NCBI GenBank assembly: GCA_963847445.1
Contig: CAWJZV010000046.1
Coordinates: 408,749 to 472,748 of the forward strand
DNA: 64,000 nt
Origin: an uncultured delta proteobacterium
Lineage (GTDB): Bacteria > Desulfobacterota > Binatia > UBA9968
Reading direction: 5' to 3'
Below are positions 502 through 48,077 of the stretch, one piece after another. Both the position numbers and the translations under genes were made by a program. The notes below the pieces were generated by a model, which ran no database searches, was not told the origin of the DNA, and worked only from the letters and a program-made list of their open reading frames with translations. Each line of letters starts with the position of its first letter. Position 1 is the first letter of the stretch.

Positions 502-515
502 CCACGACGGCACGT

Positions 516-3687: not shown

Positions 3688-3779
<92 letters not shown>

Positions 3780-3923
3780 GGTTCCTGAATCTGGCGGGCT
3801 CATCGGCCGCTTTCGATTAAGTCGGCCGCGGCAAGCAGGAAATCTTGAAACCGCCCAGTGATCAAGGTACTGTTTTTCAAGAAGCATCGGATTAGGCGAT
3901 ATTTCGTTGCGTGCGGATGTCGA

Positions 3924-4034
<111 letters not shown>

Positions 4035-4141
4035 TGGGCATCCTCATCTCGTGGCTCTCTAATTGTATAATCGCCGATCGCCGCTCTTGTGCAGTTCGCT
4101 GAGAGTCGGCGGCTTTTAGTTTGAGATTACCCAAGGAATTT

Positions 4142-5828: not shown

Positions 5829-5873
5829 GCCGATCAGCCAGCGCGGCTCAGAGCTGAAGGTAGGAGGCAAAAC

Positions 5874-6197: not shown

Positions 6198-6286
6198 TTT
6201 TTTCAGAGACTTGTGCCCAAGACAGATAAGTCAACAGCGAGCATGAAAATATTGAACATCGCTGCCTCGCCAAGCGAGGCCCGCTC

Positions 6287-6907: not shown

Positions 6908-7101
6908 CGCGTTCTTTGCAACAGCGAGCCTACCGTTCCCCAGTTTCCCCTCGATAAATACCGATTGAAGTTGCCGCGAGATCTAGACGCGATCTCCTCG
7001 ATGTGTCGTAGCTCATGAACGATGCCGGCGTGGCTCCGCCGGGCTTGAAGCCCATCCAGAAGCCGATGAAATTAATGTCATGAGGCAACGGGAATTGCGG
7101 C

Positions 7102-7142
7102 TTGACAAAAAACCGCGAAGTCCGCTAGAACTGGTCAGACCA
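7102..7142 (+). promoter_or_regulatory. putative sigma70 promoter (TTGACA at 7102-7107) with a perfect palindrome TGGTCAGACCA (7132-7142), a candidate GntR/FadR operator
   Basis: The TTGACA hexamer is followed 17-18 nt later by CTAGAAC. The palindrome TGGTC-A-GACCA lies 20 nt upstream of the regulator ATG and resembles the GT...AC core of GntR-family operators. Confidence 0.45.
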
Positions 7143-7161
7143 CCAGACCGCTGGACACTCT

Positions 7162-7902
7162 ATGCTACGCGCGATCAAGAAGACTAGGATTCATGAGGAA
7201 GTATTTAGCCAGATTCATGAGCTGATCAAGGAAGGCAGATTCAAAGCGCGCGATCAGCTGCCGTCGGAGCGCGAGCTGGCCGAGATTTTTAAAGTGAGTC
7301 GAACCTCTGTGCGGGAGGCGCTTCGGGCGTTGGAGAGCCAAGGACTGATCGTCAGCCGAACCGGCATGGGAAATTTTATCGTGGATCTGCCGGTGGAAGC
7401 ACTGGTCGGGCCGCTGGCGTACTTGCTGATTGACGAAAAGAAGGCGCTGGCGGACGTGTTTGAAATGCGCAAGCTGATCGAGCCGCAGATTGCCGCGTTG
7501 GCCGCGGAACGAGCCACAAGGAAAGATGTGGCGCAGTTGAAAAGGATTGTTGCGAAGCAGACCGAGGCGGTAAGCAGCGGCACGACGGGAGTCGAAGCGG
7601 ATGCGGAGTTTCATTTTACGATTGGGCGAGCCACGCGGAACCAGGCGCTGCAAAAACTGGTTTCCGGTTTGATGGAGCTTTTAAGTCGAAGCCGTGAGGA
7701 TTCGCTGCAAACCGATGTGCGTAGGAAGGCCTCCGTCGACGCTCATCGCCGGATTATCGGCGCGATCGAAATGCACGACAAAACTCGCGCGCGGGGCGAA
7801 ATGCTGCGCCACATCGAGGAGGTCGAAAAAAGTGTCGGTGGAATACACCGCGGGTTTGGAGGCAACAAGAAACGGTTCCATCCTCCCGGAAGAGCCGCGT
7901 GA
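7162..7902 (+). CDS. GntR/FadR family transcriptional regulator (wHTH plus FCD domain)
   Basis: LPSERELAEIFKVSRTSVREALRALESQGLI is the GntR wHTH signature. The C-terminal helical domain has the FCD-like pattern (EFHFTIGRATRN). Confidence 0.85.
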   Translation: MLRAIKKTRIHEEVFSQIHELIKEGRFKARDQLPSERELAEIFKVSRTSVREALRALESQGLIVSRTGMGNFIVDLPVEALVGPLAYLLIDEKKALADVFEMRKLIEPQIAALAAERATRKDVAQLKRIVAKQTEAVSSGTTGVEADAEFHFTIGRATRNQALQKLVSGLMELLSRSREDSLQTDVRRKASVDAHRRIIGAIEMHDKTRARGEMLRHIEEVEKSVGGIHRGFGGNKKRFHPPGRAA

Positions 7903-9928: not shown

Positions 9929-11173
9929 ATGGCAAAAGCGCTCGATGGAATTCGAATATTGGATATGACCCATGTGCAGTCGGGGCCGACTTGCACGCAG
10001 ATACTCGCTTGGTTCGGCGCCGACGTGATCAAGGTCGAGCTGCCGGGGCGCGGCGACATCACCCGCGGCCAGCTGCGCGACAAGCCCAATGTCGACAGCC
10101 TTTATTTCACCATGCTCAACAGCAACAAGCGCAGCATCACGATCAACACCAAGCATGAAAAAGGCAAGGAAGTGTTTCGCAAGCTGATCAAGGCCTGCGA
10201 CGTGATGGTCGAGAACTTCGCGCCCGGCGCGCTCGATCGCCAAGGTTTTACCTGGGAAGTGATTCACGAGCTCAACCCGCGCCTGATCTACGCTTCGGTC
10301 AAAGGTTTCGGCCCCGGCCCCTACGAAGATTGCAAAGTCTACGAAAACATCGCCCAGTGCACCGGCGGCTCGGCGAGCACCACGGGATTCGACGACGGCC
10401 CGCCGCTGGTCACCGGCTGCGCAGATCGGCGATTCGGGCACCGGCATTCATCTCGTCGCGGGAATTCTCGCGGCGCTGTTTCAGCGCGAGAAGAAGCGGC
10501 CAAGGCCAGCGCGTCACCTGCGCCATGCAAGACACCGTGCTCAATCTTTGCCGCGTCAAATTGCGCGATCAGCAGCGCTTGGCCGCTGGACCGCTGACGG
10601 AATATCCGCAGTATCCCAACGGCGTCTTCGGCGACGCCGTGCCGCGCGCGGGCAACGCTTCGGGCGGCGGGCAGCCGGGTTGGGCGGTGAAGACCAAGGG
10701 CGGCGGGCCCGAACGATTATATTTACGTGATCATTCAGCCGCCGGGCTGGGAGCCGTTGATGAAGCTGTGCGGCCGCCCTGAATTGATCACCGATCCCGA
10801 GTGGGCGACGCCGGAAAAACGTTTGCCCAAGCTCGACAAGTGCTTCGACATCGTCGAACAGTGGGCGATGACGTTCGACAAGTTGGCAGTCATGCGCGAG
10901 CTCAACAAGTTCGACATTCCCTGCGGGCCGATCTTGGACATGCGCGAGATCGCCGAAGAACAGTCGCTGCGCGAAACCGGCACGGTGGTCGAAGTCGATC
11001 ATCCCAAGCGCGGCAAGTTTTTGACCGTCGGCAATCCGATCAAGCTTTCCGATTCGCCGACGGATGTGACACCGTCGCCGCTGTTGGGCGAGCATACCGA
11101 TGAGATTCTCAAATCCATCGTCGGCTGGAGCGACGCGGAGATCGCCGCGGCGCGCAAAGATGGCGCGGTCTGA
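9929..11173 (+). CDS. frc: formyl-CoA:oxalate CoA-transferase (three apparent frameshifts near 10415, 10495 and 10715)
   Basis: [96 protein letters not shown] and [11 protein letters not shown] closely track Oxalobacter Frc as I recall it. The pieces lie in three frames. Confidence 0.85.
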
Positions 11174-11277
11174 CGAGCAAGAGGTTAACCACAGGGTGAC
11201 GCAGAGATTACGTAGGGGGATTCGGGTCGGCAATTTAGTCGGCAGAGAACGCAAAGTGCGCAAAGAAATTGAGAATT

Positions 11278-11313
11278 GTAGGGGCGAGTTTAAACCCCGT
11301 CCTCTTGGTTTTC
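11278..11313 (+). repeat. REP-like element GTAGGGGCGAGTTTAAACCCCGTCCTCTTGGTTTTC (second copy at 58700)
   Basis: It is near-identical to 58700-58735 and has an internal hairpin GGGGCG..CGTCC/CGCCC. Confidence 0.7.
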
Positions 11314-11388
11314 AGCGAAAGTTTACCCGGCCGAATAACTACTACCAGTATCGCAAAGCAGCGGAGGGATTGATGGACAAGAGAGGCT

Positions 11389-13497
11389 GTGCGTACCCTC
11401 ATCGACTCAGTCCGGAAGTCCGGCCGGCGCGCTCTGAGCGCGCCTGAAGCCCAGCAGTTGTGCGATGCCTACGGCATTCCTACGCCGAAGCAGGCGCTGG
11501 CCAAGAGCGCGGCTGAGGCAGTCAAAATCGCCGCGCGTTTACGTTTCCCGGTTGTCCTCAAAATCGTCTCGGACGATATCCTCCATAAAACCGAAGCCGG
11601 CGGCGTGATCGTCGGTCTCAAGAGCGCCGGCGAAGTGCGCCGCGCTTTCGATCGCCTCGTCAAAAGCGCCAAGGCTTATAAGAAAAACGCCGCGATCCAA
11701 GGGGTTCAGGTGCAGCAGATGCTTGGCGGCGGCCGCGAGGTGATGGTCGGTGCGGTGACCGATCCATCGTTCGGCAAGTTGGTCGCCTTCGGCTTAGGCG
11801 GCGTCCTCGTCGAAGTGATGAAGGACATCACGTTTCGACTGGCACCGGTGAGCAAGAAAGACGCGCTGTCGATGCTCGACGGCGTCAGCGGCGCGGAAAT
11901 TCTCCGCGGCGTGCGCGGCGCTAAAGGCGTCGATCGCGCGCGCTGGCCGACATCTTGCAAAAAGTTTCGCAGCTGGTCAACGACTTTCCCGAAATCCTCG
12001 AAGTCGATTTGAATCCGATCTTTGCCACCGACAAAGGGCGCGCACGGCGGTGGACGTGCGCATCGTCGTCGGCGAGCCGTTGCCGCAACGCCAACGATTT
12101 AGTCAGCCCGACATCTTGAGCGCCATGCAGCGGATCATGAATCCGCGCGCGGTCGCGGTGATCGGCGCGTCGGCGGAGGACGGCAAGATCGGCAACTCGG
12201 TGATGAAGAATCTCATCAACGGCGGCTACGCCGGCAAGATTTATCCGATTCATCCGAAGGCCGATGAAATCCTCGGGCGCAAGGCGTATGCGAGCGTGCT
12301 CAACGTGCCGGAGGAAATCGACGTTGCGGTGTTCGCGATCCCGGCGAAATTTTGTGCCGGCGCGATGGAGGAAGTGGGGCGAAAACAAATTCGCCGGCGC
12401 GGTGATGATTCCCTCCGGTTTCGCCGAGGTCGGCGAGCAGGGGTTGCAGGACGAATTGCTCGCCGTCGCCCAGCGCCACAACGTGCGCATTATGGGGCCG
12501 AATATCTATGGATTCTACTACACGCCGCAAAATCTTTGCGCGACTTTCTGCACGCCCTACGATGTCAAAGGCAAGGTGGCGCTTGAGCTCGCAGTCCGGC
12601 GGCGTCGGCATGTCGATCGTCGGCTTCTCGCGCACCACGCGCATGGGCGTGTCGGCGATCGTCGGACTGGGCAACAAATCGGATCTCGACGAAGACGATC
12701 TGCTGACCTACTTCGAGCAGGACGACAACACCCAGGTGATCGCCATGCACTGCGAAGATCTGAAAGACGGCCGGTCGTTCGCCCAAGTGGCGAGCCGGGT
12801 GTCGAAGAAGAAGCCGGTGGTCATGCTCAAGGCCGGCCGCACCGCTCTCGGCGCGCGTGCCGCCGCCTCGCACACCGGCGCGCTGGCCGGCAACGATAAA
12901 ATTTACGACGACGTGCTGCGCCAGTGCGGCGTGATTCGCGCCAAGAGTTTAAATGACTTGTTGCAGTTCGCCCGCGGCCTGCAGGTGCTGCCGACGCCAA
13001 AGGGCGAAAATATTATTATCATCACCGGCGCCGGCGGTTCGGGAGTTTTGCTTTCGGACGCTTGCGTCGACAACGGCCTGTCATTGATGAAGATGCCGCC
13101 GGACCTCGACGCCGGGTTTCGCAAATTTATCCCGCCCTTCGGCGCCGCCGGCAATCCGGTGGACATCACCGGCGGCGAACCGCCGACCACTTACGCCAAC
13201 ACGATTCGCTACGCCCTCGCCGAGCCGCGCATTCATGCGCTGATCTTGGGCTACTGGCACACGATCATCACGCCGCCGATGGTGTTCGCCAAACTCTGCG
13301 CCGAAGTGGTCGAGGAGGCGCGCGCCAAGGGGATCGACAAGCCGGTGGTGGCTTCGCTGGTCGGCGATGTCGAGGTCGAACAAGCCTGCGACTATCTCTA
13401 CGAGCGCGGCATCGTCGCTTATCCGTACACGACGGAACTGCCGGTCGCCGTGCTCGGCGCCAAGTACAAATGGGCGCGCGGCGCGGGTGTGCTTTAA
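11389..13497 (+). CDS. ADP-forming acyl-CoA synthetase, fused ATP-grasp (beta) then CoA-binding/ligase (alpha) domains (about four apparent frameshifts near 11940, 12040, 12380 and 12585)
   Basis: The ATP-grasp part reads FPVVLKIVSDDILHKTEAGGV. The CoA-binding part reads NPRAVAVIGASAEDGKIGNSV and YPIHPKADEILG. The ligase part reads SQSGGVGMSIVG, GLGNKSDLDEDD and ASHTGALAGND. The pieces tile contiguously across frames. Confidence 0.75.
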
Positions 13498-16805: not shown

Positions 16806-17058
16806 GAGAGATGACGTCGTGAAGCCCCGGTATTCTCTTTCACTGTATCGATCGCTTGGCCTGTCCGCGGAGCTCTGGCTCGGTCGGCTTACGTGAAGAG
16901 CTGCAATCGTTAGCTGACCGCCTGATGGTGCAGCCCGCCGAGGTGGTCAATCAGGTCAAGAAGATTTTGCGCCGAAATAAGCGAGGTGATGAGAGCATGC
17001 GCTGCTGGTTCGGTTGCCATCTAGGTATCAGCGAGAGGCTTTGCTACTTTACCGGTGA

Positions 17059-17464
17059 ATGCATCAAAGTTGGAGGCTCTCCATGCCAACTGTCCGGTAC
17101 CTAACGATCTTGTTCGCCTTGTTTCTCTCAATGCCGGCGGCGGCGCAGATACAGTATCAATTTCAGGACCAGCCCCGGCCTGAAGCCGACGTGGTCGTGG
17201 TAAACCATACGCTTCAAGTGCGCGGCTCGGCTGACGTTGTGGATGGTCGGCCGCGTGTTCAATCGCGGGCTCAAACCGGCGCGTAACGTCCGCGTAGTGC
17301 CGCTGCTGACGAACCTTTACGGCTCCCGGTTGCCAACCAATACCATCTATCTCAACCCGTCGGACGTGCTGCCGACGAGCTTCGCAAACTTTGAGGCGCG
17401 CGTGGGATCGTCGATGGATGTTCGCGATGTGATTTCGCATGCAACGGCCGAGTGGGATCCATGA
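17059..17464 (+). CDS. hypothetical secreted protein (one apparent frameshift near 17240)
   Basis: A signal peptide (MPTVRYLTILFALFLSMPAAAQ) is present. The two ORFs 17059..17286 and 17237..17464 join to one ~135-aa beta-rich protein. Confidence 0.35.
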
Positions 17465-17614
17465 TCGGATTGAGAACACAATCGGCAAATTGTCAATGGT
17501 TGAGGCGGACAACCTGACCCCGGCAATTGGCGGTGCGGAATACAGCGCAGATCGCCGCAATCCAGCACGACAATTCATGCGCAGGATCTACACGGACCAT
17601 GCCCGCCTCGATCG

Positions 17615-17932
17615 TTATAACGCTTCGGCGTGTAAACGAACGCCAAGGGCCTTGGCAACTCTCAGGACTGTGGCAAAGCTTGGATTACCTTTATTGCTCA
17701 GCGCCTTGTATAAGCTTTCGCGACTAAGGCCCGCATCGCGTGCCACACTCGACATTCCTTTGGCACGAGCGATATCGCCGAGCGCTCTAGCGATACCGGC
17801 CGGGTCATCTGGCGCTTCGTTCAGCCACGCGTCGAGATACGCAGCCCTTTCATCCGGTGTGCGCAGCTGTGCTGCTACATCATAAGGCACAGTCTTTGTT
17901 TTTCCGGTGGATTTAGATAACTTTTTGCGCAT
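17615..17932 (-). CDS. addiction-module antidote protein (HigA family HTH antitoxin)
   Basis: VPYDVAAQLRTPDERAAYLDAWL...IARAKGMSSVARDAGLSRESLYKALSNKGNPSFATVLRVAKALG is the typical putative addiction-module antidote pattern. It lies 10 nt downstream of the toxin gene. Confidence 0.8.
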   Translation of the reverse strand: MRKKLSKSTGKTKTVPYDVAAQLRTPDERAAYLDAWLNEAPDDPAGIARALGDIARAKGMSSVARDAGLSRESLYKALSNKGNPSFATVLRVAKALGVRLHAEAL

Positions 17933-17942
17933 GATTGTTCTC

Positions 17943-18218
17943 CTACAGATTTTGCGCCAGCGAAATGGCTTTTTGTATGTCTCGCTGTTGAGTTGATTTG
18001 TCCCCACCTGCTAGCAGAATGATGATTTCGTCTCCGCGTTCCATGTAGTAGACCCGATACCCGGGACCAAAATCGATCTTAAGCTCGCAGACACCTTCGG
18101 TGAGCCGCCGATATTGCCCGGGGTTTCCGTGCACGAGTCGATCGACCCGCACCTGAATGCGCGCGCGGCCTGTACGGTCTTTGAGAGAGTTGATCCAGTC
18201 CCGATAGACCTCGGTCAT
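17943..18218 (-). CDS. addiction-module killer protein (RelE/HigB-type toxin)
   Basis: RIQVRVDRLVHGNPGQYRRLTEGVCELKIDFGPGYRVYYMERGDEIIILLAGGDKSTQQRDI matches the killer-protein family pattern. Confidence 0.8.
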   Translation of the reverse strand: MTEVYRDWINSLKDRTGRARIQVRVDRLVHGNPGQYRRLTEGVCELKIDFGPGYRVYYMERGDEIIILLAGGDKSTQQRDIQKAISLAQNL

Positions 18219-18239
18219 CCCCACTCGCATAGTTGCATT

Positions 18240-18255
18240 GTAACCTATAGGCTAC
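18240..18255 (-). promoter_or_regulatory. near-perfect palindrome GTAACCTATAGGCTAC upstream of the toxin gene, a candidate TA autoregulatory operator
   Basis: The palindrome is read directly (one mismatched pair) and lies 22 nt upstream of the toxin start. Confidence 0.4.
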
Positions 18256-18404
18256 ATGCGTCAAGGGAGAAGTTGTTGATTCTAGGGAGAAGACCGCGAT
18301 CACAGTCAGGAACTCTGTGCTAGCTCGATGAAATCCAGGAAGGGTTCAGCGTTTGCCATTGCGGTTGCCGATTACGTGGAATCGGCTGGTTACTCTGTGA
18401 CATT

Positions 18405-19710
18405 TTACTGTTTGATATCTCGCGGCGCGGTCTTTTTTAGCAACAAGGCGAGAAGCTCGAGGCGCTCCTTAGAAAGATTCTTGAGCGCGGATGACGAACC
18501 ATCGCTCTCGCGGGCATACGCCTCTTGCTTCACCGCAGGCACAGCAGCCAGATTTTCCAGATATTCCTCAACCGGCGCGATCGAAAGCTTCGAAACGTAA
18601 TTCTCTGCGGCCTCCCGGGAGGCTGTGGATAGCTCGTCATAATGCTGCCGATCAGAGAGAAGTCGCTTCAACGCGTCGAGCCAAGGCCGAATATCTTGAT
18701 CGGGGACGAACGGGACTGGAAGCATCTGGTCATCTCGGCGCGTCTGGTAGCGCGCGATGGGCTCAACCGGCAAGAGATAGTCCACGCCTAGTTTTGCTTC
18801 GGGTAGGCCGCCAAGATTGCTAGCCAAGACCGGGATTCCTCTGAGCATCGACTCGACGACGATCTTGCCAAAGGCTTCCCCCCACAGCGATGGCACCAGC
18901 ATAATGCGGGTCCGGGCGAAAATCTGATCTATATCCTCGGTCGGCTGAAGCAGCTCCACATTAGGAAATTGTTTTAGGGCAACCCGGTCTGCAGCGGTAG
19001 TGGCCCAAGTCGGCACTGCGGCAAACCTTTCCGCAGGTAAAGCGCGCGCCAGCTCTAAAAAAATGGCAATGCCTTTGATCGCCGACGGGTTGACCATCGT
19101 AATGAAGGCGTTATCCAATGATCCGGAGTGGGGCCACGGTGGGCTCCCGTAAGCCGGCAAGGAAATGGCGACCGAGTCCAGGCCGCCCCATTTATAAATA
19201 TAACTCTTCAGGTAATTGCTGACCGCTATGATTCCAGCCGTCCGCTGTAGCATTTGTGTCCTTCAACGGATCCGGCGAAAAACACTCGGGACCGAAAGGC
19301 AGAGTCGCCTGGCTGTGCGATAGATAAACAACACGTCCCGGCATGCTCTCCAGGGCAGCCGCCAGGGCAAGATAACTAGGATCCTCGGATATCAAAATCC
19401 AATCCGGCGAAAACTCTCCGACCTGCTTCAGAAGCTGGCCGCAAAATTGACTGGTGTCGGCGAGTTGGTGAACCTGAACGCCCTGGAGATCAAATCTCTC
19501 GGTGCAAGGCGAGAATCCCGCTTCGGTCGGATTCAATGACTCGTTGCGCGATCCGCGGCGCGACGCGAAATGCGTTGCGGTGTGCGCCAACGCGAGGACT
19601 CTGCACAGGTGGCCTCTTCGGCTAAGATATTGCAGCAGCTCGCGGTTTGATTTTGCCGCCCCGGTCCAGCTCGGCGAATACGATAATTTCTGCGCCAGAA
19701 ATATTTTCAC
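18405..19710 (-). CDS. glycosyltransferase family 1 (GT4-type) (one apparent frameshift near 19200-19250)
   Basis: The N-terminus MKIFLA...RELLQYLSRRGHLCRVLA is GT4 N-domain-like. The C-domain contains the EAFGKIVVESMLRGIPVLASNLGGLPE (E-x7-E region) motif. Confidence 0.75.
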
Positions 19711-36423: not shown

Positions 36424-39194
<2,771 letters not shown>

Positions 39195-39222
39195 GTTGTT
39201 GAAGTACATACGCTGGAAGAAA

Positions 39223-39254
39223 ACGGGCCGGTCGAAGGTATTCGGTCGGCCCGT
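39223..39254 (+). terminator. hairpin after nrdJ (ACGGGCCG ... CGGCCCGT)
   Basis: An 8-bp perfect stem lies 29 nt after the nrdJ stop. The downstream T-tract is weak (TGTAGCTTTG). Confidence 0.45.
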
Positions 39255-39281
39255 TGTAGCTTTGATGCAGAGAACTGCAGG

Positions 39282-39310
39282 TTAGCACAAATCTAGAATC
39301 TGGATAGAAT
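39282..39310 (+). promoter_or_regulatory. putative promoter of the TIR gene: TTAGCA - 17 nt - TAGAAT, ending 6 nt before the ATG (leaderless-type geometry)
   Basis: The hexamers and spacing are read directly. No Shine-Dalgarno sequence lies between the -10 and ATG 39317. Confidence 0.4.
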
Positions 39311-39316
39311 TCAGAA

Positions 39317-40225
39317 ATGGCTCTAGTTTTTCTATCGCATAGCAGCTGTGACAAGGAACTCGCCCGGAGACTCGCGATTGATCTGCGTATGTCGCGAATA
39401 CGTGTGTGGTTTGACGAGTGGGAAATCCACGTGGGTCACTCTATAAGTCAGCGCATTGGAAAGGGCTTGGACGAGGCTGATTTTGTTGTTGTTCTTTTGA
39501 CAAAACAGAGCATCGCTTCTGGTTGGGTTCAAAAAGAATGGATGAGTCGGATCGGAGACGAAGCAATTTCTCAGGGTATCTTTGTCCTTCCGGTTCTTGC
39601 AGAAGACTGCGTTATCCCACGCCTACTTCAGGATAAGCGGTATGCCGATTTCCGGTCCGACTACGAATTGGGCCTACGTGACTTAATCTCATCAATCCAG
39701 TTGCATGCAGCAAATGAACTTACGATTTCGGGCGGCGCGACAATTGAGTCGGGGCGAATAGTGTATGAAGACGTGATTCCCGATATTCCGATGATGCGAG
39801 GACTCATAAACACGATAGAAAGCGGATTTTTTGAAAGACACAAATACGGACTCAAAGCGCATGTGCAATTCATATCTTCGCATCAAGCGCTACAGGACTT
39901 CGCGGACACGTGGAGTGCGAACCGGGTAACATTAGAAAGTACTGACTATTCGATTTCATGTGACCCAGGCAAACCCTCAGAATTTGTTGCAACGCGTAGC
40001 ATCAAACTCCCAGCGGGATCGCTTCTTCCAGATATATCGACAGGGAAACAGCTGCGACTTCCGCTTTCCATTGATATGGATGTTGCCACCCGGGTTGTTG
40101 GTAGATTTACAAACGGTACAGTCGTTGGAAAGTTTTATCAGACCACCTTGCTCAGGTCGGCAATTCCACTTCCTATTCCTGATATAAATGTGAGCGGTAG
40201 CTTCAAGGCCATTGTGTCAGTGTAA
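39317..40225 (+). CDS. TIR domain protein with an unassigned ~170-aa C-terminal domain
   Basis: ALVFLSHSSCDKELARRLAIDLRMSRIRVWFDEWEIHVGHSI...ADFVVVLLTKQSIASGWVQKEW fits the bacterial TIR_2 pattern, including the conserved Glu (E74). I recognise no motif in residues ~135-302. Confidence 0.8.
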   Translation: MALVFLSHSSCDKELARRLAIDLRMSRIRVWFDEWEIHVGHSISQRIGKGLDEADFVVVLLTKQSIASGWVQKEWMSRIGDEAISQGIFVLPVLAEDCVIPRLLQDKRYADFRSDYELGLRDLISSIQLHAANELTISGGATIESGRIVYEDVIPDIPMMRGLINTIESGFFERHKYGLKAHVQFISSHQALQDFADTWSANRVTLESTDYSISCDPGKPSEFVATRSIKLPAGSLLPDISTGKQLRLPLSIDMDVATRVVGRFTNGTVVGKFYQTTLLRSAIPLPIPDINVSGSFKAIVSV

Positions 40226-40435
40226 TTTGTTGGTCATCTCGACGAAAAAGAAGAGGTTTCCGATTCCTCAACTCAGCGGTGACTCTGCAATATGCGCTGA
40301 AGATATTAAGCAACGCGGCGAATAGGTGATTATCGATGTCGGCAAAAATCGAAGTGTGTCGTTGACGAAACTACGCAGCGGCAGCCGCAGCGACTTCAGG
40401 GATGTTGTTAGTCAGGCGATCGGGGTCTACTTTTT

Positions 40436-40505
40436 TTCACAACAATCTGAAGAGAAAGTCTTGAAACAAAAGTTTTACTCGTTTTCTTTTTCTTCATAAG
40501 TCGTG
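40436..40505 (+). repeat. island II repeat, 5' module copy 1 (TTCACAACAATCTGAAGAGAAAGTCTTGAAACAAAAGTTTTAC...)
   Basis: It aligns over about 70 nt with 45640-45709 with few substitutions. Each copy lies downstream of a plus-strand cargo gene (TIR, MBL). Confidence 0.75.
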
Positions 40506-40739
40506 CCCCGCTGCGGCCACAGGCGGAACGGACTTAGGGGACATCCTATAATTTTCTTGTCAAGTAGTATTTTAAAAAAACTTATCCGTCGAGCTTTACA
40601 GCCTGAACAATCTTTTTGTCCACCAGCACCAACGGCGAGTCTCTCACTTTATTCGAACTCTGCACCTAAGCGTTACAATTATCCGGCGTACTTGCTTTCA
40701 GTCGCCCAGCATCCCTTATCCAGGTTGCAGCAGTTCAGT

Positions 40740-40812
40740 GAGAGAGGCCCCGAGAAATTGTCCCTTTACGAGGTCCATTTGGCCTCCATGCTATTGACCG
40801 GGGTCCTCTCTC
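40740..40812 (+). other. long imperfect hairpin inside the ORF-poor stretch (GAGAGAGGCCCCG ... CGGGGTCCTCTCTC)
   Basis: A 13-bp stem with one bulge, read directly. The inner segment GAGGTCCATTTGGCCTC can form a second hairpin. Confidence 0.5.
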
Positions 40813-41489
40813 GCCCGCAGAACCGATCTTATTACGGACCGGCTCTGCAGTAGCTCAGCGCGATCTTTCTCACGCTGAGAGTTCGTTTCACCGGTGCGGC
40901 TTTAAAAACGGCTTCCATAAAAGCCCTATAACGCACGCGCCGCGTCGGGTTGGACCTTTGGTATACCTCCGTTTTTCATCTTGGCGTTGCTGGCGGCTGC
41001 GATCATCTGATCGCCGGCACCGAGATAGCCAGGGTCAGGAGAAGGGGTCAGACTCTCATGTCTCGACTTTCTTCATCGGGTTCTCAAATCCCGCCGCATT
41101 TCTTCATCATTTTTCAACCGTGAAGCAATCGATGGACGTTGTTGACTAGCTGGACAACGAGGATCCGAGGGTCAAATAGTTTCGACTTATTGCCAAGCTG
41201 ATTTGAGCCGGTCGAAACCGACTTTTCCTTCGCTTCTACCTTTTCAGAGCATGCTCGGAGGCTCGCTCTTTTTCGCGCTCCCAACGCGGTCGATAATTGC
41301 GTCCAGCAATTCATCGACCCTCTTCGGCTTAAGATTGAACAACAAACCCGCTTCTCATGGTTTCCTTCCTGCTGATCCTGAATCCGGAAATAGAGTTTTG
41401 CTCCGCTCACGCGCTTCGCACAGTTCCTACAAAGACGGCACCACCCATATCTCATGTCGCCGCTGGAATTTATGCAGCGACTCGGCGCG

Positions 41490-41680
41490 CTGGTACCGCT
41501 CGGGCAGTTTGCGCGAGCGTCGGGACAGGGAACAAATCAAGCGCATCCGACCGCTACATCGCCCGAATCGGCCGAAGCAAGATCCGCGATTGTCAATCAA
41601 CACACGTGCGATTGACGGCCCGCCGGTTCGGCGCTATAGCTCCCGTCAGCGAAAAAGGCTGTTTAACTGTCGTATACAGC
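41490..41680 (+). repeat. island II repeat, copy A (core plus 3' module)
   Basis: It contains the core GACAGGGAACAAATCAAGCGCATCCGACCGCTACATCGCCCGAA and the 3' end TATAGCTCCCGTCAG...GTTTAAC shared with copies B, C and D. Confidence 0.75.
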
Positions 41681-41756
41681 AATGGCGTCTCTCTCGTTTG
41701 TCTATTTGCCCGTTCGGCGATGCTCTGTTAAAGTTATGGTGAGTTGAGGATCACTG

Positions 41757-41996
41757 ATGGAAACCGTAAATATCGATGAGATGCATCGTGACTTTGCTCG
41801 CGTCATGGATAGGGTCGCTAAGGGCGAAGAAGTTGTGATTACCAGCGCGGGGAGTCCGGTGGCGAAATTGGTGCCTTTCAATCGGCCTTCTGTGCGGCGC
41901 GTGCCGGGTTGTTGGAAGGGTAAAGTTCGTATCGCTCCTGATTTCGATGTTCTGCCACCAGAAGTGGCGGCGGCCTTTCGCGGCGACGTTCCGTGA
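41757..41996 (+). CDS. Phd/YefM family antitoxin
   Basis: VNIDEMHRDFARVMDRVAKGEEVVITSAGSPVAKLVP is the Phd/YefM N-terminal pattern. It overlaps the downstream PIN gene by 4 nt. Confidence 0.8.
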   Translation: METVNIDEMHRDFARVMDRVAKGEEVVITSAGSPVAKLVPFNRPSVRRVPGCWKGKVRIAPDFDVLPPEVAAAFRGDVP

Positions 41997-42370
41997 ATTT
42001 ACTTCTGGACACCCACGTCCTCCTATGGTGGCTGGCGGACGATGCTCTTCTTCAGCCTGCAGCTCGCGACGCCATCCGAGACCAAGCGAATGTTGTCTAT
42101 GTGAGCGCAGCGACGGCATGGGAAATCAGTATTAAGAAAGCGCTTGGAAAGCTCGATTCACCGGACGATCTCGCCAACACTCTTGAACTCAATAACTTTC
42201 ATCCTCTGGAAATCACCATTGCCCACGCCACGATGGCTGGGTCCCTGCCGCGTCACCATGATGACCCTTTCGACAGAATGCTAATCGCCCAGGCTCAAGC
42301 CGGCCAGCTCACCTTGGTTACACATGATGGATGGTTTCGCGCTTACGGAGTTGCGGTAATTTGGACCTAA
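41993..42370 (+). CDS. vapC: PIN domain toxin (VapC family)
   Basis: LLLDTHVLLWW (first acidic residue), SAATAWEISIK and DPFDRMLIAQA are PIN signature segments. Confidence 0.85.
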   Translation: MNLLLDTHVLLWWLADDALLQPAARDAIRDQANVVYVSAATAWEISIKKALGKLDSPDDLANTLELNNFHPLEITIAHATMAGSLPRHHDDPFDRMLIAQAQAGQLTLVTHDGWFRAYGVAVIWT

Positions 42371-42537
42371 TGAGCAGTGGGCGGCGTGCTCGATGCCATC
42401 TGTGCTAATGCATTCTTCCGACGTTGGGCCGAAGAGTAACTTCAAGGACACAGGCTGTAATGTGGAGTCTTTGCTTGATTGAAATCTACGCTGTCTGCCG
42501 CATTCTCGGTCGATTGTAAGTCGTCGATCACTAGGAA

Positions 42538-42792
42538 CTAAACAATACCTGACAGTTGTTTTCCTCTGTTGAGAGCGGACACTTGTTTTCAACGCAGGCC
42601 GACGATGCTGCTCGGTCACGCGTTTGAGCGAGCGCACCGACAGGGAACAAATCAAGCGCTTCCGACCTCTGCATAGCCCGAACTATCCGAAGCAAAACGG
42701 CGATTATCACCCAACACTCGTGCGCTCGACGACTCGCCGGTGCGTCGCTACGGGTGCCGTCAGAATGTGAGTTGTTTAAATTTCTTATCCAG
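42538..42792 (+). repeat. island II repeat, copy B (5' module, middle, core, 3' module)
   Basis: CTAAACAATACCTGACAGTTGTTTT..., CCGACGATGCTGCTCGG, GACAGGGAACAAATCAAGCGCTTCCGACC and ...GCCGTCAG...GTTTAAATTTC. It is collinear with copy C. Confidence 0.8.
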
Positions 42793-42861
42793 ACAAAGGT
42801 AGATGGCTACTCCGTAGCAGCCGGCGCTTGACGGCGGTGGGTCAATGGCCGCCTTCTGCTT

Positions 42862-43161
42862 TCACGCCGCTAACGCCTTCAGCACGGCTTTCGGGTCAGT
42901 CTTGATCGCTCGCAGCAGAGCCTTTGCCGGGCCAGTGGGCTCTCGTCTGCCCTGTTCCCAATTGCGCAAAGTACCAACGTCGACGTGCAGGAGCTTCGCG
43001 AACTGCGGCTGACTGAGGCCGGTCATGGCTCGAATCTCCTTGACCATTGCGGCATCGACATAGAACTCTCGCGACGGCGCGCGAACGCCGCGCACGATTT
43101 CATCCATCTGACTCATGCTTTCTACTAATCGCTTAAACAGCTTCTTGTCCATCGTTACCAC
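42862..43161 (-). CDS. HTH (XRE-like) antitoxin
   Basis: IRAMTGLSQPQFAKLLHVDVGTLRNWEQGRREPTGPAKALL is a Cro/C1-type HTH. It overlaps the upstream toxin gene by 7 nt. Confidence 0.75.
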   Translation of the reverse strand: MVTMDKKLFKRLVESMSQMDEIVRGVRAPSREFYVDAAMVKEIRAMTGLSQPQFAKLLHVDVGTLRNWEQGRREPTGPAKALLRAIKTDPKAVLKALAA

Positions 43162-43469
43162 CCCGCATTAATTTTGCGCAACACGGTCTTTTCCTTGGGC
43201 GTCAAGTCGTCTTTGATTCCCTTGCGGTAGATCAGAATCAGTCGAATCTGAGCTTGTGCGACCACGTGGTAGTAGATCACGCGCGTGCCACCACGTTTGC
43301 CCCGTCCCGCCGTCGTCCATCGAACCTTTCGCAAGCCGCCGGTGCCGGCAATGACATCCCCTGCATCCGGTTGGCTGACCAGATGCCGCTGCAGGGCAGC
43401 ATAGTCCTTATCGCTGAGCAGCGCTTGCACATCTGCAGTGAAAATCGGCGTCTCAACGAAGACCATCAC
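43155..43469 (-). CDS. RelE/HigB-2-like toxin
   Basis: FVETPIFTADVQALLSDKDY...GTGGLRKVRWTTAGRGKRGGTRVIYYH...LILIYRKGIKDDLTPKE matches the pattern of HigB-2-type toxins paired with HTH antitoxins. Confidence 0.7.
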   Translation of the reverse strand: MMVFVETPIFTADVQALLSDKDYAALQRHLVSQPDAGDVIAGTGGLRKVRWTTAGRGKRGGTRVIYYHVVAQAQIRLILIYRKGIKDDLTPKEKTVLRKINAGW

Positions 43470-43729
43470 TTACAGTACACTAATGGCGTTTACTACGTCA
43501 ATGACTTACCCTCGAAACGGTCAAGACCGAACGCGCGTGGGTCGATGCAAGAAGCGGGGAAATCTTCATGCGTTCTTTTAAGGTGCTCAACAGAAGCTCG
43601 GCCTTTTCATGTCCCGTTCGAATTTCGCCGCTGATCTTGCTCAGACGACGAATTGTGCGATAGAAAAACCATTCGGGTAGTGAAACAGACTACGAAGGAG
43701 CCGCGCCATGTCCAGACGGCTACTAGCAA

Positions 43730-43972
43730 CTAAACAATACCCGACAGTTGTTTTTCTCAGTTGAGAGCCGCAAGCTGGTGCAACGCAAGCCGACGATGCA
43801 ACTCAGTTTCGCGTTCGAGCGGGCGCGCCGACAGGGAGCAAATCAAGCGCATCCGACCGCTGCATCGCCCGAACTATCAGTACCAAACTCGTGATTTTCA
43901 CCTTGACGACTCGCCGGTGTGGAGATATAGCTCCCGACAGAGGAATGAGGGTGTTCAAATTTCCTATACGTA
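43730..43972 (+). repeat. island II repeat, copy C
   Basis: It is collinear with copy B: CTAAACAATACCCGACAGTTGTTTTT, CCGACGATGCAACTCAG, GACAGGGAGCAAATCAAGCGCATCCGACCGCTGCATCGCCCGAAC, TATAGCTCCCGACAG...GTTCAAATTTCC. Confidence 0.8.
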
Positions 43973-44018
43973 GAACCGACTACATTGCCTGAAACACAAA
44001 CCAAGACACATCAACTTT

Positions 44019-45554
44019 ATGAGCACTAAATGCGTCATCAATGTGGATCTGGCCGACGTGTGGGGTGAGGCTGGTCGTAAAAAATTCCTGCGCACACTCG
44101 GGTGGGGCGATGAAGTCCTCGTGACCGGGCAGAGCTCCACCAGCATTGAAATCGAGACGGTTTATTTCAACGAGCAGCCCGATGGCAGCATCCTGTCCGT
44201 GAAGGAGGCGGGCGTCATCGAGCCGAGAAAATCATCCGGCATCAAAACCGCCGATGTGGTGCGCCCGCGCAATCAGAACGACGTCCTCAAGGTCAATTGC
44301 GTGGACGTCCAGCAAGGCGATGGCTCCGTGATCGAGTCACCCGACGGCAAGGTCATTCTCGTGGATGGCGGCGACAACCAGTTGTTTGCCCGTTACCTCG
44401 CGGGGCGGTACCGCGGAACGACGCCTGAGAATCCGAAGGAAATTGATTGCATCCTCGTGACCCACGGTGACGCCGACCACTTCGCCGGCCTGCCTGAAAT
44501 CTTTAAGTCCGAGACCAACAGCAACAAACGAAAGCGCCTCTTCATCCAGCCGAAACGGTATTACCACAACGGCATCGTCAAGCGCCCGAGCAAGAAGAAC
44601 GGCAAGAGCGTGCCGGACGTTGAACTTCTCGGAGCGACGCGCAAGGTTGGGAACCAGACGTTTCTCACCGGCCTGGAATCCGATTTGTTGAAGGTGCCGG
44701 ACGCGGAGATGAATGCTCCGTTCAAGGAATGGAAGGGCGCGCTCCAGGAATACAACAAGCGCTCCAAAATTGAATTCCGCCGGCTTGAGTTCGGCGACAA
44801 TCAGGCCTTCTCATTCTTCAACCAGGGTGACCTCCGCATTGAAGTGCTGGGCCCGTTGGTGACCCAGGTTGGCGGCAAGTCTGCACTCCGCTTTCTCGGC
44901 GACCCTCCGAAGGGACCGCGCGTCGGCCACGAATCCTTGAATCTGGGCGAGGAAGGATTCAAGGGACACTCCGCGTCGCACACCATCAACGGCCACTCCA
45001 TCGTCTTCCGCCTTGTTTACGGCGGCTTCAGCTACCTCTTCACGGGTGACCTGAATGACGAGGCCAGCCGGTTCCTCACCCGTGAGCACAACGCGGGACG
45101 CCTCAACCTCATGGCCGAAGTCTTCAAGGTGCCGCATCATGGGTCCGCGGATTTCTCCGGCGCATTGTTCCAGGCCGTCTCACCCGTCGTCAGCATCGTT
45201 TCCAGCGGCGACGAAAGCGCGCGGAAGGAATACATTCATCCAAGGGCGACCCTCGTGGGCGCTTTGGGCAAATGGTCGCGAGTTCCCGAGCCGCTCATCT
45301 TCGTCACCGAACTGGTGGCATTCTTCAATGTTGAAGGCTGGTCGAAGCTAGCGGACCCAAAGACGAAGGCGCAAAAGGAGCGCGGCGAATTCTTTGGTTT
45401 CAGCCGCACCGCCTTCGGCATCGTCAAGACACGGACCAACGGCAAACGCCTGTTGGTCTATACCGACAGCGGCAATGTGCAGATGAAAGAGGCGTATGCC
45501 TACGCCCTCGACTCCTCCGGCGTTCCGCAGCCTGCCGTTGTTCTGCGCGCATGA
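44019..45554 (+). CDS. soluble ComEC/Rec2-type MBL-fold hydrolase with extra N-terminal (~95 aa) and inserted segments
   Basis: VDVQQGDGSVIESPDGKVILVDGG, ILVTHGDADHFAGL, FTGDLNDEA and KVPHHGSADF follow the ComEC-type metallo-beta-lactamase motif order. No TM competence domain is present. Confidence 0.75.
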   Translation: MSTKCVINVDLADVWGEAGRKKFLRTLGWGDEVLVTGQSSTSIEIETVYFNEQPDGSILSVKEAGVIEPRKSSGIKTADVVRPRNQNDVLKVNCVDVQQGDGSVIESPDGKVILVDGGDNQLFARYLAGRYRGTTPENPKEIDCILVTHGDADHFAGLPEIFKSETNSNKRKRLFIQPKRYYHNGIVKRPSKKNGKSVPDVELLGATRKVGNQTFLTGLESDLLKVPDAEMNAPFKEWKGALQEYNKRSKIEFRRLEFGDNQAFSFFNQGDLRIEVLGPLVTQVGGKSALRFLGDPPKGPRVGHESLNLGEEGFKGHSASHTINGHSIVFRLVYGGFSYLFTGDLNDEASRFLTREHNAGRLNLMAEVFKVPHHGSADFSGALFQAVSPVVSIVSSGDESARKEYIHPRATLVGALGKWSRVPEPLIFVTELVAFFNVEGWSKLADPKTKAQKERGEFFGFSRTAFGIVKTRTNGKRLLVYTDSGNVQMKEAYAYALDSSGVPQPAVVLRA

Positions 45555-45639
45555 CAAAAACTGGCAACAGCGTCCTTCGGCAGCTTGGGCAGTTCGCTCG
45601 CTGCCCACCGACGAAGATTGATAGGAGTCAGATAATTAT

Positions 45640-45970
45640 TTCACGACAATCTGCAAAGAAAGTCTGGAAACAAAAGTTTTACCGATTTCCTTTTTCTACA
45701 GAAGTCGCGCAGCGCTGCGCGTGCAAGGCGCAGGCAGCCGATTTATTCCAAACTGCCTGAAGGTTGGATCCTGGTGCCAACGTAACCGACGGTGCTGCTC
45801 GGCCTCGCGTTGGAGTGAGCGTGCCGCCAGGGCACAAATCAAGCGCATCCGAGCGCTGCAGCACCCCGCTTCACCATCGCCAAATGGCTTCCGGAAATGG
45901 TCTGCGAATATTACCACTTTCCGGCCGCCACGAAAGAACCGGCCGTACATGGACACATTTAAATTATTGG
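45640..45970 (+). repeat. island II repeat, copy D (long 5' module copy 2, middle, core, divergent 3' end)
   Basis: 45640-45709 matches 40436-40505. CCGACGGTGCTGCTCGG and CCAGGGCACAAATCAAGCGCATCCGAGCGCTGCAGCACC match the B/C middle and core. It ends near CATTTAAATT. Confidence 0.75.
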
Positions 45971-46089
45971 GGTTGGAAGAGTTCAGCGAATGGGCGCAGT
46001 TGGATTGAGTTGATTTCTCGAGCGAGCGGGACGTCGATCTACTAGATCCATGATGTGCCAGGTCAATAAAATCGTTGCTCTCCCTCGGG

Positions 46090-46509
46090 TTAGGGCTTGA
46101 ATGGGATAATATGCAGGTTGGCGATCGGGCGATAGTGTTTAAGATTGGCGGTCGCCAGTGATCCGTTTGTGTCCAGCGTCGAAGCGGCAATCAGCGCATC
46201 GACGACACGCAGTCCATTCGGCAATGCGTGTCGATCGAGCAGGTCGCTGGCTTTTCGACAGTTTGTTTCATTCAAGAATATAACTTGAGCGAAATTTTCC
46301 GAGACGAACAGTTTGACTTCGCGTATTTCCGCATTGTTTCGGCAGCCTTGGGTCAACTCCATGATGCTCAGTACGGAGATCGCACGTCTGGAATAGGCGA
46401 TGGCATCGATCGCCCGAAGCGCTTTTTCACTGCCTCGCAAATACCAGATTAAGATGTCGGTATCGAATACTACCGGGTAACGCGAGGTTGCCGAAGTTTG
46501 CTCAGCCAT
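46090..46509 (-). CDS. vapC: PIN domain toxin (VapC family)
   Basis: VVFDTDILIWYL, SVLSIMELTQG and VDALIAASTL are PIN segments. It lies downstream of a Phd-type gene. Confidence 0.8.
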   Translation of the reverse strand: MAEQTSATSRYPVVFDTDILIWYLRGSEKALRAIDAIAYSRRAISVLSIMELTQGCRNNAEIREVKLFVSENFAQVIFLNETNCRKASDLLDRHALPNGLRVVDALIAASTLDTNGSLATANLKHYRPIANLHIIPFKP

Positions 46510-46742
46510 TGTTCCACGTTGCGATTGTCTTTTCGGTCTTTCCAGATGCCAAAGCCGGCCGCTTTCAGCGCTTTGGGTCGCTTTGCGTCGATGGGCGCTA
46601 GCACCGCGATGGGTTTGTTGCGATAAGTGATCGTCACCGGTTGGCCCTTGCGGACTTCGTCGAGAATGAGCGCGGTTTTATTTCGCAAATCTTTAGCTGT
46701 CGCCGTTCTCACGGTTGCCTCCGAATAAAGTATGCACTTCAA
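46470..46742 (-). CDS. Phd/YefM-type antitoxin
   Basis: TATAKDLRNKTALILDEVRKGQPVTITYRNKPIAVLAPI is the Phd/YefM pattern. Confidence 0.75.
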   Translation of the reverse strand: MKCILYSEATVRTATAKDLRNKTALILDEVRKGQPVTITYRNKPIAVLAPIDAKRPKALKAAGFGIWKDRKDNRNVEQWLSKLRQPRVTR

Positions 46743-47047
46743 AGTATATACTTAGGGCAGCGCCGCTACAAGGAATGGGGAGAAAATCTGCCGGATCGCC
46801 TCATCCCCGGCAGCAAGTGGCCGAGGGTCCTCTTTTGCGGTTCGAAAGGACGTTATGTTGCCTGTGATAGGGAATGATATATGGATTAGCCGTGGCAAAG
46901 GATGACTCACTTGCTCGACTCTGCCCAAGGGTCTCATTATTCGGGAAAGTGATACCAAGAGTCTGTTAATAAGTGATTTGGCAACTCGGACGGGACATAG
47001 TAAAGATCGATCACTTGTTTATCTAATAAACTTCAGAGGAGATTTTC

Positions 47048-48077
47048 GTGAAAAGAATTTTGCTACTTTTACTGTTTAGCTTGATTGCGATTTCGCCCGT
47101 CTCAGCCCAGACGCCCTTCTACCAGGGCAAGACCGTGCAGATCCGTGTCGGCTTCGCCGCGGGCGGCGCGTTCGATGTTTGGGCGCGGGTGATCGCTAGT
47201 CATCTCGGCCGCTTCGTACCGGGGAATCCGACGTTTGTCGTGCAGAATATGACCGGCGGCGGGTCGATGGTTGCGGCGAATTATATTTATAGCGTGGCCA
47301 AGCCGGATGGCTTGACGCTCGGTGTGGTCAGCCCGGCGATGTATATCGAGCAGGTGACCGGCAAGAAGGAAGTGCAGTACGACTGGTTCAAGTTTAGTTT
47401 TATCGGCTCGCCGGAGAAGACCGATCGGATTTTCTACATGCGCGCCGATTTGGGAATCAAAACCCTAGAGGACATGCGCACGGTGGCGGAAACGCCGCGG
47501 TGCGGGTCCACCGGCATCGGCAGTGCGGCCTATTATTTCCCGCGTTTGTTGCAAGATACGTTTGGGCTCAAGCTCACCATCGTGCCGGGTTATCCTGGAG
47601 CTGCCGATGTCAATCTTGCCATCGAAAAGGGCGAGGTGCACTGCTTTAGCGGCACGTTGCAAGCGTACTTTGGCAGCGAGCCGTTGCGCACTTGGTCAAA
47701 GACCGGATTCGCCCGTGTGCTGGTGCAGGGCGGGACCAAGCGCGATCCGCGCATGGCGAGCGTGCCGACATTGTGGGAGTTGATGGACAAGCATAAGTCC
47801 AACGAGATTTACCGCCGTTTGGCGAGAGATACTGCTCATTCCCGACGATATGGGCCGGCCGCTGTTCGGCCCGCCGGGCATGCCGGCTGATCGTTTGAAG
47901 GCGTTGCGTGACGGTTTCAATAAGATGATAGCCGACCCGGAGCTGCTCGCCGAGGCGAAGAAAAAGGGTCTCGATGCTACGCCGCTGAGCGGCGAGGAAC
48001 TCGACGCGCTGATTAAAGAAGCCGGCGTGCCGTCGGCGGATACCATTCAACGGCTGAAGCCGCTGATGGAAAACTAG
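47048..48077 (+). CDS. Bug/TctC family tripartite tricarboxylate transporter substrate-binding protein (one apparent frameshift near 47825)
   Basis: It has a signal peptide, then FYQGKTVQIRVGFAAGGAFDVWAR and NMTGGGSMVAANY, typical Bug-family motifs. It is a paralog of 60082..61197. Confidence 0.8.

Follow-up and report, generated by a model that had tools for sequence, protein, structure and literature searches.

What are the repeats that separate the small genes of Island II? This island occupies positions 39195–47047 of the window (the whole 64-kb stretch of DNA that we analysed), where it is bounded by the stop codon of nrdJ, encoding a B12-dependent ribonucleotide reductase, and by a TctC-family gene (tctC, 47048). 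A sequence-only reading had likened it to a series of integron cassettes, or attC clusters without an integrase, and had suggested an undescribed mobile or defence arrangement. We find that the repeats are very probably 3′ ends of rolling-circle insertion sequences (ISs) of the gene-capturing IS91/ISCR family, 5′-truncated or internally deleted and lacking the transposase. The repeat thus belongs to a known family, and the idea of an undescribed arrangement is not supported. The architecture that had been recognized holds in outline, as a strain-variable array of small cargo with a mobile-element site in fixed orientation and an enzyme outside the window, but it is not of the integron kind.

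A repeat search returned one family with four copies (A–D), all on the plus strand and spaced 1115, 1191 and 1996 nt from start to start. The 26-nt core has four matches at ≤3 mismatches, compared to zero expected from 100 shuffles, and a repeat profile (nhmmer) finds these four copies only in the window, all within the 8-kb island. This bears out the initial observation that same-strand copies of one repeat separate the TIR, Phd-VapC, helix-turn-helix (HTH)/RelE-like, metallo-beta-lactamase (MBL) and VapC-Phd units. The copy limits (A, 41498–41680; B, 42471–42793; C, 43722–43972; D, 45621–45866) are close to those first proposed, except that the right limit of copy D had been overstated, as 45867–45970 are not homologous. 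Copies differ from one another by 17–30%.

The shape of the repeat was defined from a stack of 27 copies, with about 35 copies or termini available overall from the window and related loci (designated by L numbers). The right end is sharp and constant across copies, with a consensus of ..TTGACGACTCGCCGGTnCGGCGATATAGCTCCCGTCAGAGAAAAAGGGTGTTTAAATTTCCTATAC and unrelated DNA beyond it. To the left, the boundary is ragged: left parts come in two kinds, and several copies are cut at differing points and joined to unrelated DNA. The minimal common unit is ∼145 nt, and typical copies measure 205–350 nt. No inverted copy of the terminal 21-mer was found at ≤4 mismatches in the window or the repeat-carrying loci, indicating that the element has no terminal inverted repeats; a transposon or MITE (miniature inverted-repeat transposable element) bounded by such repeats was rejected on these grounds. 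RNAalifold, applied to a 220-nt alignment of 19 distinct copies, gave −4.2 kcal/mol for the plus strand and −10.5 kcal/mol for the minus strand; neither covariation nor a helix pairing the two ends was seen, which excludes an attC-like hairpin or structured RNA on either strand. Folds of single copies shared no common structure, and a search of the whole window against Rfam at gathering thresholds returned nothing in the island. A 9-bp complementarity between TCAAGCGCA and TGCGCTTGA was also considered as a helix and rejected, since the core is invariant, its partner varies and there are no compensatory changes.

The identity of the repeat became apparent when a protein collection was searched with the open frame that runs across it. 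This search led to L102, in which a Y2_Tnp fragment lies immediately upstream of the repeat (hmmscan E 2e-11, or 1.6e-14 after frameshift correction). The fragment is 41–52% identical to residues 321–469 of the ISCR2 transposase (E 5e-31), and its coding sequence (..KDGTTHI.MSPLEFMQ.LGA.VP) is 91% identical to window positions 41422–41498, which also match the transposase genes of L106, L107 and L108. L108 has a 492-aa gene (16927–18405) that combines Zn_Tnp_IS91 and Y2_Tnp domains, and the repeat (18374–18585) follows it directly. An IS91 transposase motif had seemed recognizable in SPLEFMQRLGALVP; distant IS91 proteins did not bear this out by tblastn, and DNA identity to L102 and L108 did. 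A small insertion (..KIIACPEPRRRAAIEDPP..) occurs in the conserved C-terminal KIIAAIEDPP segment of some copies of this gene, namely P0045 and L108 (∼18250–18300).

The native C-terminus of the homologues reads ..ARRVDLFQTI (..KIIAAIEDPPVIVKILSHLGLPTRAPPRSPARRVDLFQTI), followed by the stop codon. In copies B, C and D, this stop falls at the same alignment position, where the conserved core begins on its left side, which identifies the conserved core as the non-coding oriIS region and the variable left part as a stub of the transposase gene. Each copy can thus be parsed, on the evidence of the alignments, as a Y2 (HUH) transposase-gene stub of variable length, a stop codon, a ∼210-nt non-coding oriIS region and a conserved terminal motif. 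Copy A is joined to its transposase remnant through an internal deletion, and in copy B the 'type I' left part is probably a divergent transposase 3′ end. All that is left of the transposase within the window is a 77-nt remnant of its gene and the final codons. Three IS91-family transposases and one tyrosine integrase found nothing in the window by tblastn, ISCR2-type transposases matched the stubs only, and a Pfam search of ten further unassigned open reading frames (ORFs) of the window revealed no recombinase. With part of the ORFs scanned, no recombinase was thus found in the window, in line with the earlier statement.

The terminus of the repeat points to the same family. The repeat region ends sharply in GGGTGTTTAAATTTCCTATAC / GAAAAAGGGTGTTTAAATTTCCTATAC. 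The end of ISCR2/ISVsa3 is GGGCGTTTATTCTTCCTATAC (..GAAAAGGGCGTTTATTCTTCCTATAC), 233 nt after the transposase stop and adjoining sul2; an ISCR-like element on pO83 ends in ..CTGTTTATATTCCCTATCC next to mph(B); and E. coli IS91 ends in GGGATTTAAATTCCTATCGAT (..TTTTGGGATTTAAATTCCTATCGAT, also given as GGGATTTAAATTCCTATCG), with GAAC beyond. Alignment of the end of copy B with those of ISCR2, pO83 and IS91 brings out a terminal motif common to the window repeat and the ISCR ends, ..GGGYGTTTAnnnTTCCTATAC. A pattern derived from ISCR2 has two sites in the window, in copies A and C only (one mismatch in copy C), versus 0.04 expected. From stop to terminus, the non-coding region measures 205–218 nt in the window copies, similar to the 232–233 nt of ISCR elements (232 bp for the ISCR1 oriIS region; PMC6218425). 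Likeness to known ISCR elements is confined to the protein level and the ∼25 terminal nucleotides, and blastn of the repeat against plasmids gave no match. Coordinates of these and the remaining features are collected in the table. An xer/dif-like site at the right end was considered by eye and dropped.

Table. Features of Island II, in window coordinates
Feature	Positions	Strand	Basis
Start of variable region: nrdJ stop, terminator-like hairpin 39222–39255, DNA 5′ of the TIR gene	39195–39316		Inverted repeat; end of L109 synteny
Cargo 1: TIR-domain protein, 302 aa	39317–40225	+	Pfam TIR_2 E 5.8e-27; GC 0.45–0.48
M1 copy 1: degenerate piece of the transposase-gene 3′ end, truncated at 40523	40429–40523	+	83% identical to 45636–45719
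Filler between M1 and M3	40524–41121		Six-frame translation: broken ORFs only; no match in any fetched locus
M3-left: recurrent 300-nt module opening with imperfect palindrome GGACGTTGTTGACTAGCTGGACAAC (41134–41158)	41122–41421	+	In L022 (twice), L092, L109
Transposase-gene (Y2) remnant, ..KDGTTHI/MSPLEFMQRLGALVP	41422–41498	+	91% over 77 nt to L102 976–1052, inside Pfam Y2_Tnp match
oriIS region, copy A	41498–41680	+	nhmmer E 1.8e-55; terminal motif 41661–41677
Cargo 2: phd 41757–41996, vapC 41993–42370	41757–42370	+	Pfam PhdYeFM_antitox E 1.4e-9, PIN E 1.1e-17
'Type I' left part, copy B, ending in TGA 42570–42572	42471–42572	+	Common to L071, L091, L066, L092; stop position
oriIS region, copy B	42573–42793	+	nhmmer E 5.4e-61; terminal motif 42774–42790, 218 nt from stop to motif
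Cargo 3: HTH antitoxin 42862–43161, RelE/HigB-like toxin 43155–43469	42862–43469	−	Pfam HTH_3 E 4e-8
M4 short module	43630–43714	+	86% identical to L022 2774–2859, there after M3
'Type I' left part, copy C, ending in TGA 43762–43764	43722–43764	+	91% identical to 42530–42576
oriIS region, copy C	43765–43972	+	nhmmer E 3.7e-56; terminal motif 43953–43969, then GTA and GAAC
Cargo 4: MBL-fold protein, 511 aa	44019–45554	+	Pfam Lactamase_B E 3.3e-13
M1 copy 2 and final transposase codons ..ADLFQTA, TGA 45758–45760	45621–45760	+	Alignment with L022, L092, L102; homologue C-terminus
oriIS region, copy D, broken off after ∼105 nt, terminal motif lost	45761–45866	+	nhmmer profile positions 10–89, E 2.8e-15
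Cargo 5: vapC 46090–46509, phd 46470–46742	46090–46742	−	Pfam PIN E 6.3e-13, PhdYeFM_antitox E 8.4e-9

We then looked beyond the window. A scan of one genome per species with a 17-base core gave 64 single matches, with ∼70 chance matches estimated for the 596 billion bases (both strands); only 2 of the 64 proved genuine, one in the 2.9-kb contig L022 and one in L058, which belongs to a Binatia metagenome-assembled genome. A metagenome scan gave 32 loci. With L022 and L058 included, 21 loci bear a genuine repeat copy, and some of them several. In nearly every multi-copy contig, all copies lie on one strand, as they do in the window (4/4), L075 (4), L091 (3), L108 (7), L107 (8; seven from the nhmmer table plus the transposase-gene remnant at 12000–12078) and L106 (3). 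Metagenome contigs from ENA carry dense co-oriented arrays (L108 4459–20623, with seven copies in 20 kb; L107 6573–20386; L106 5962–16578), in which one to three cargo genes (BrnT/CopG, amidohydrolase, TIR, glutathione S-transferase (GST) and others) lie between copies; the L108 array encloses the 492-aa transposase gene described above. Contigs L100–L103 and L106–L109 derive from metagenomes of the ERZ250394xx–ERZ250395xx series. At two sites, L089 5683 and L069 2128, the oriIS region is broken at the identical point (after ..CACTCGTGC) by unrelated DNA starting AAAAACAAAAAAAGGCCC and followed by a large ORF, by eye a putative DDE-type transposase. This looks like another IS inserted into the stub.

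Cassette shuffling had been predicted for Island II, and is seen. The block 43767–45604, comprising the right part of copy C and the MBL gene, is 94–95% identical in L022 and L092, where its neighbours differ, so that the MBL unit is found in three contexts; the MBL gene is attached to copy C in both loci. The block 42648–43515 (the right part of copy B with the HTH/RelE-like pair) recurs at 89% in L084 behind a differently truncated copy, giving two contexts. An independent contig, L066, confirms the junction of Phd-VapC, copy B and the HTH gene (95% over 1050 nt). In each of the cases of MBL, the HTH/RelE-like pair and a nitroreductase in L071/L081, the cargo is coupled to the oriIS region upstream of it. 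A comparison of L103 with L088, L085 and L091 for independent insertions at the same site found junctions that are not identical. Between L103 and L088 or L085, one DUF433/DUF5615 pair (∼1.2 kb) is present or absent immediately 5′ of the stub.

The locus itself is strain-variable, judging from two relatives. In L109, whose DNA is 94% identical, synteny with the window stops at 39196, exactly after the nrdJ stop, and other genes follow right behind it (10594–12290), encoding a 245-aa Cys-rich protein and a Zn_ribbon_8 protein; module M3 comes after this cargo, and the contig terminates within M3. In the remoter relative L110, pnp lies behind nrdJ and the island is absent.

How might such an array arise? 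In the IS91 family, transposition by the HUH Y2 enzyme begins at oriIS, from which one strand is displaced in the direction of terIS; termination fails in 1–14% of events, and adjacent DNA is then carried along (PMC13181058, PMC3189936). Experiments with IS801 showed early termination in 26% of events, producing right-end fragments of 229, 360 and 679 nt, and natural IS801 fragments, which sit near accessory genes, act mainly as recombination substrates (PMC3189936). The enzyme of this family nicks oriIS, and the strand is peeled off leftwards through the element until terIS or a look-alike tetranucleotide is reached. An early stop gives short right-end stubs, and a late stop takes neighbouring genes along (one-ended transposition). 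Island II would then represent an accretion of such products downstream of nrdJ, in which cargo alternates with stubs of the same direction. A transposase encoded elsewhere in the genome would have delivered the units in trans, and homologous recombination among the ∼80%-identical stubs would have reshuffled them afterwards. An extra step, either recombination or a circle intermediate, would be needed because the oriIS region to which the cargo is linked lies upstream of that cargo. Of rolling-circle transposition itself, only the footprint (fixed right end, ragged left ends) is visible.

A bolder version is that the stubs are not debris but make up a functioning rolling-circle 'cassette' system. 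Transposition by a Y2 enzyme provided in trans would be initiated at one oriIS and terminated at the next upstream stub, and single-stranded circles of cargo plus stub would be released, to re-enter beside other stubs or recombine with them. We consider this rather unlikely.

Several observations weigh against the assignment to IS91/ISCR ends or the mechanism proposed for them. No intact transposase was found in the window, so that any present-day mobility would be conjectural. Simple leftward one-ended transposition predicts that cargo should be linked to a downstream oriIS, whereas the observed link is to the upstream one. The target tetranucleotide that should abut the oriIS end is not consistently present: across 35 termini, only R-K-(A) is conserved after CCTATAC, with the MBL-linked copies reading CCTATACGTA followed by GAAC. 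GAAC, CAAG or CGAC at the 5′ truncation points is suggestive but ambiguous in L084, L077/L079 and L094. L100 carries copies in both orientations. No convincing terIS was found, and the palindrome of module M3, the candidate considered below, does not occur upstream of the long transposase gene in L108. Finally, a consensus scan does not call the promoter-like element of the repeat, TTGACG-17-TATAGC, in which T is missing at position 6; this counts equally against the promoter explanation taken up below.

Could the stubs simply be fossils, shuffled at present by homologous recombination of ∼80%-identical 200-nt repeats, with no rolling-circle activity? This is a real possibility, albeit a doubtful one. 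The lack of an intact transposase in the window and the divergence of the copies fit it, as do context breakpoints that fall inside the repeat (e.g. near 43767–43781), and the IS801 study ascribed most natural fragments to reorganisation rather than one-ended transposition (PMC3189936). However, the many 5′ truncation points fused to unrelated DNA need insertion or deletion, not mere exchange within the repeat. The near-full-length transposase inside the L108 array also argues against dead relics, and the >2300 close homologues of the coding part of the stub in the metagenome protein collection suggest a recently active family.

A further explanation holds that the repeat is kept as a portable promoter module, TTGACG-17-TATAGC driving the downstream gene. 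The hexamers are highly conserved, a ribosome-binding site and ATG lie 15–50 nt past the terminus in many copies, and the POUT promoters in the ISCR1 oriIS region provide a precedent (PMC6218425), which hints that the stubs may drive expression of downstream genes as that region does. On the other hand, the −10 hexamer decays to AATAGC in L108-type copies, and the genes after B and D are convergent, on the minus strand. As the reason for the presence of the repeat, we deem this improbable; it is compatible with an origin from IS91/ISCR ends rather than an alternative to it. A promoter for an extracytoplasmic-function (ECF) sigma factor at GGAAC was considered by eye and dropped.

Lone copies between unrelated genes in some loci (e.g. 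L077, L081 and L094) recall a generic intergenic repeat, of the repetitive extragenic palindrome (REP) or MITE type, spread through the genome without regard to cargo; yet terminal inverted repeats and inverted copies are lacking, all four copies in 64 kb sit inside the island, arrays are strongly co-oriented and the sequence runs on into a Y2 transposase gene, which makes this explanation highly improbable. Least credible of all, to the point that we give it practically no weight, is an integron-type cassette array or cluster of attC sites lacking an integrase (CALIN), in which the repeats would be unusually long attC sites, folded from the bottom strand and served by an IntI encoded elsewhere: co-oriented sites behind single genes or toxin-antitoxin (TA) pairs, TA cargo typical of chromosomal integrons and shuffling of cargo between contexts do recall such arrays, but the copies lack a conserved attC fold and any RYYYAAC/GTTRRRY pair (R and L boxes), have a ragged left edge, exceed the ∼55–141 nt of attC even in their minimal unit, and constitute the 3′ end of a Y2-transposase element. 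The sole right-edge GTT reads GTTTAAA, GTTCAAA, ATTTAAA (copy D) or GTCTAAA (L058), conservation continues for 13 nt past it, and the boundary does not fall between G and TT; canonical attC is refuted. A tyrosine integrase used as query (from the Caballeronia plasmid locus L097) has no relative in the window or the first 21 repeat loci, and the gene tables of L100–L103 and L106–L108 list no integrase family.

Among known systems, ISCR1, ISCR2/ISVsa3 and IS91 are thus the nearest. Beyond the terminal motif and the length of the oriIS region, the likeness includes a homologous transposase (Y2_Tnp, compared over the C-terminal third from the L102 fragment), variable captured genes just past the oriIS end, and truncated copies in direct orientation. 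The differences are that the host here appears to be an uncultured soil lineage, that the cargo consists of TA, TIR, MBL and metabolic genes rather than antibiotic-resistance genes, that none of the four window copies has a transposase, that the copies are packed every 1–2 kb, and that DNA identity to ISCR2 is limited to the last ∼25 nt. Fragments of IS801 in Pseudomonas syringae similarly combine a constant oriIS end with 5′ ends that vary, often lie beside accessory (virulence) genes, serve as recombination substrates and derive from early rolling-circle termination (PMC3189936). Those fragments begin at GAAC-like tetranucleotides, a feature that may at best be seen in a few copies here, and co-oriented arrays of 4–8 stubs are not described in that study (PMC3189936). 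Integron arrays and CALINs resemble Island II functionally only: single genes or TA pairs are interspersed with conserved co-oriented sites, content varies between strains and the enzyme may be encoded elsewhere, but here attC structure, boxes and a tyrosine integrase are lacking, and the sites come from the end of a transposon that an HUH Y2 enzyme processes. Helitrons are also rolling-circle HUH transposons with one well-defined end, gene capture by read-through and many non-autonomous copies; they differ in being eukaryotic, in their helicase-fused RepHel protein and in their 5′-TC..CTRR-3′ ends.

The label 'defence island', which the sequence-only reading had attached to the cargo, is only weakly supported. 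PADLOC matches the TIR domain to the PDC-S66 and ThsB-like models, at the domain level only, and the MBL domain alone to the LmuA, RTasMBL and Avs1a models. The island contains no partner genes that would complete a Thoeris, Lamassu or Avs set (e.g. ThsA with ThsB, LmuA with LmuB). Furthermore, the same stubs elsewhere flank genes for GST, glyoxalase, nitroreductase, amidohydrolase, CMD, GDSL lipase, BrnT/BrnA, DUF433/DUF5615 and TIR proteins; the element is therefore not specific to defence genes. The RelE-like ORF scores 24.4 bits against PF06296 (E 3.6e-5), below the cut-off of 27, and in exact-protein look-ups the RelE-like and MBL proteins of the window are not on record. Cargo 5 is the last unit ahead of tctC. 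L103, a 15-kb contig with one full repeat copy, has many TA-like pairs at 170–7430 (Unstab_antitox, DUF433/DUF5615 twice, DUF4258/DUF2283) and also carries single metabolic genes.

Several other modules lie between the cargo genes and the repeat copies. M1 recurs at 45621–45719 within the window, and is also present in L022 and L075, there ahead of full oriIS regions. The filler between M1 and M3 is possibly a decayed minus-strand gene. M3 as a whole spans 41122–41498 and opens with the palindrome GGACGTTGTTGACTAGCTGGACAAC, which is unique in the window (zero expected). This palindrome is found elsewhere at L022 21 and 2495, L092 3202, L109 12300, L077 3732 and L084 539. In L077, L079, L084 and L091 it occurs alone, upstream of shortened copies, and its strand is in every case that of the repeat. 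Written as GGAC followed by GTTGTTGACTAGCTGGACAAC at 41134, it is a terIS candidate, and M3-left could be a left end of the terIS type. In that case 41122–41680 would be a non-autonomous element of ∼560 nt. The palindrome may instead be an unrelated operator or terminator. Near it, the end of a short minus-strand ORF (..VDELL..ID.V.S.KK.EPPSML, then stop) is kept between the window and L109.

Composition varies along the island. GC is 0.45–0.48 over 39250–40750 (the TIR unit) and 0.50–0.59 in the remainder, and ∼0.60 in nrdJ. The nearest named relatives of nrdJ are Candidatus Binatia. The gene appears as two overlapping ORFs (36424–38763 and 38439–39194), and the tctC-family gene (47048–48077) is apparently frameshifted near 47850. 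In L109 and L110, nrdJ is also split, elsewhere in the gene. These breaks look like indel errors of long-read assemblies, not biology. Outside the island, a small minus-strand ORF (17615–18007) resembles by eye an addiction-module antidote (HTH) protein; its neighbour, a 185-aa ORF (17021–17578), has no Pfam match.

ISCR-type elements have mostly been discussed for antibiotic-resistance genes in clinical Proteobacteria. The window and its relatives indicate that, in uncultured soil bacteria, elements of this type also build small arrays from TA, TIR, MBL and metabolic genes, and transposase-less oriIS stubs of this IS91/ISCR-type family are common there. Such stubs can mimic integron arrays by eye, and pipelines that seek transposase genes alone will miss them; reassignment to a known family here averts a false claim of novelty. 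If anything here is new, it is how dense and regular the stub arrays of soil metagenomes are, with 7–8 units per 20 kb in related contigs. This would matter if the stubs act as a rolling-circle cassette system, which, if true, would amount to integron-like arrays, co-oriented and strain-variable, that operate without integrase or attC.

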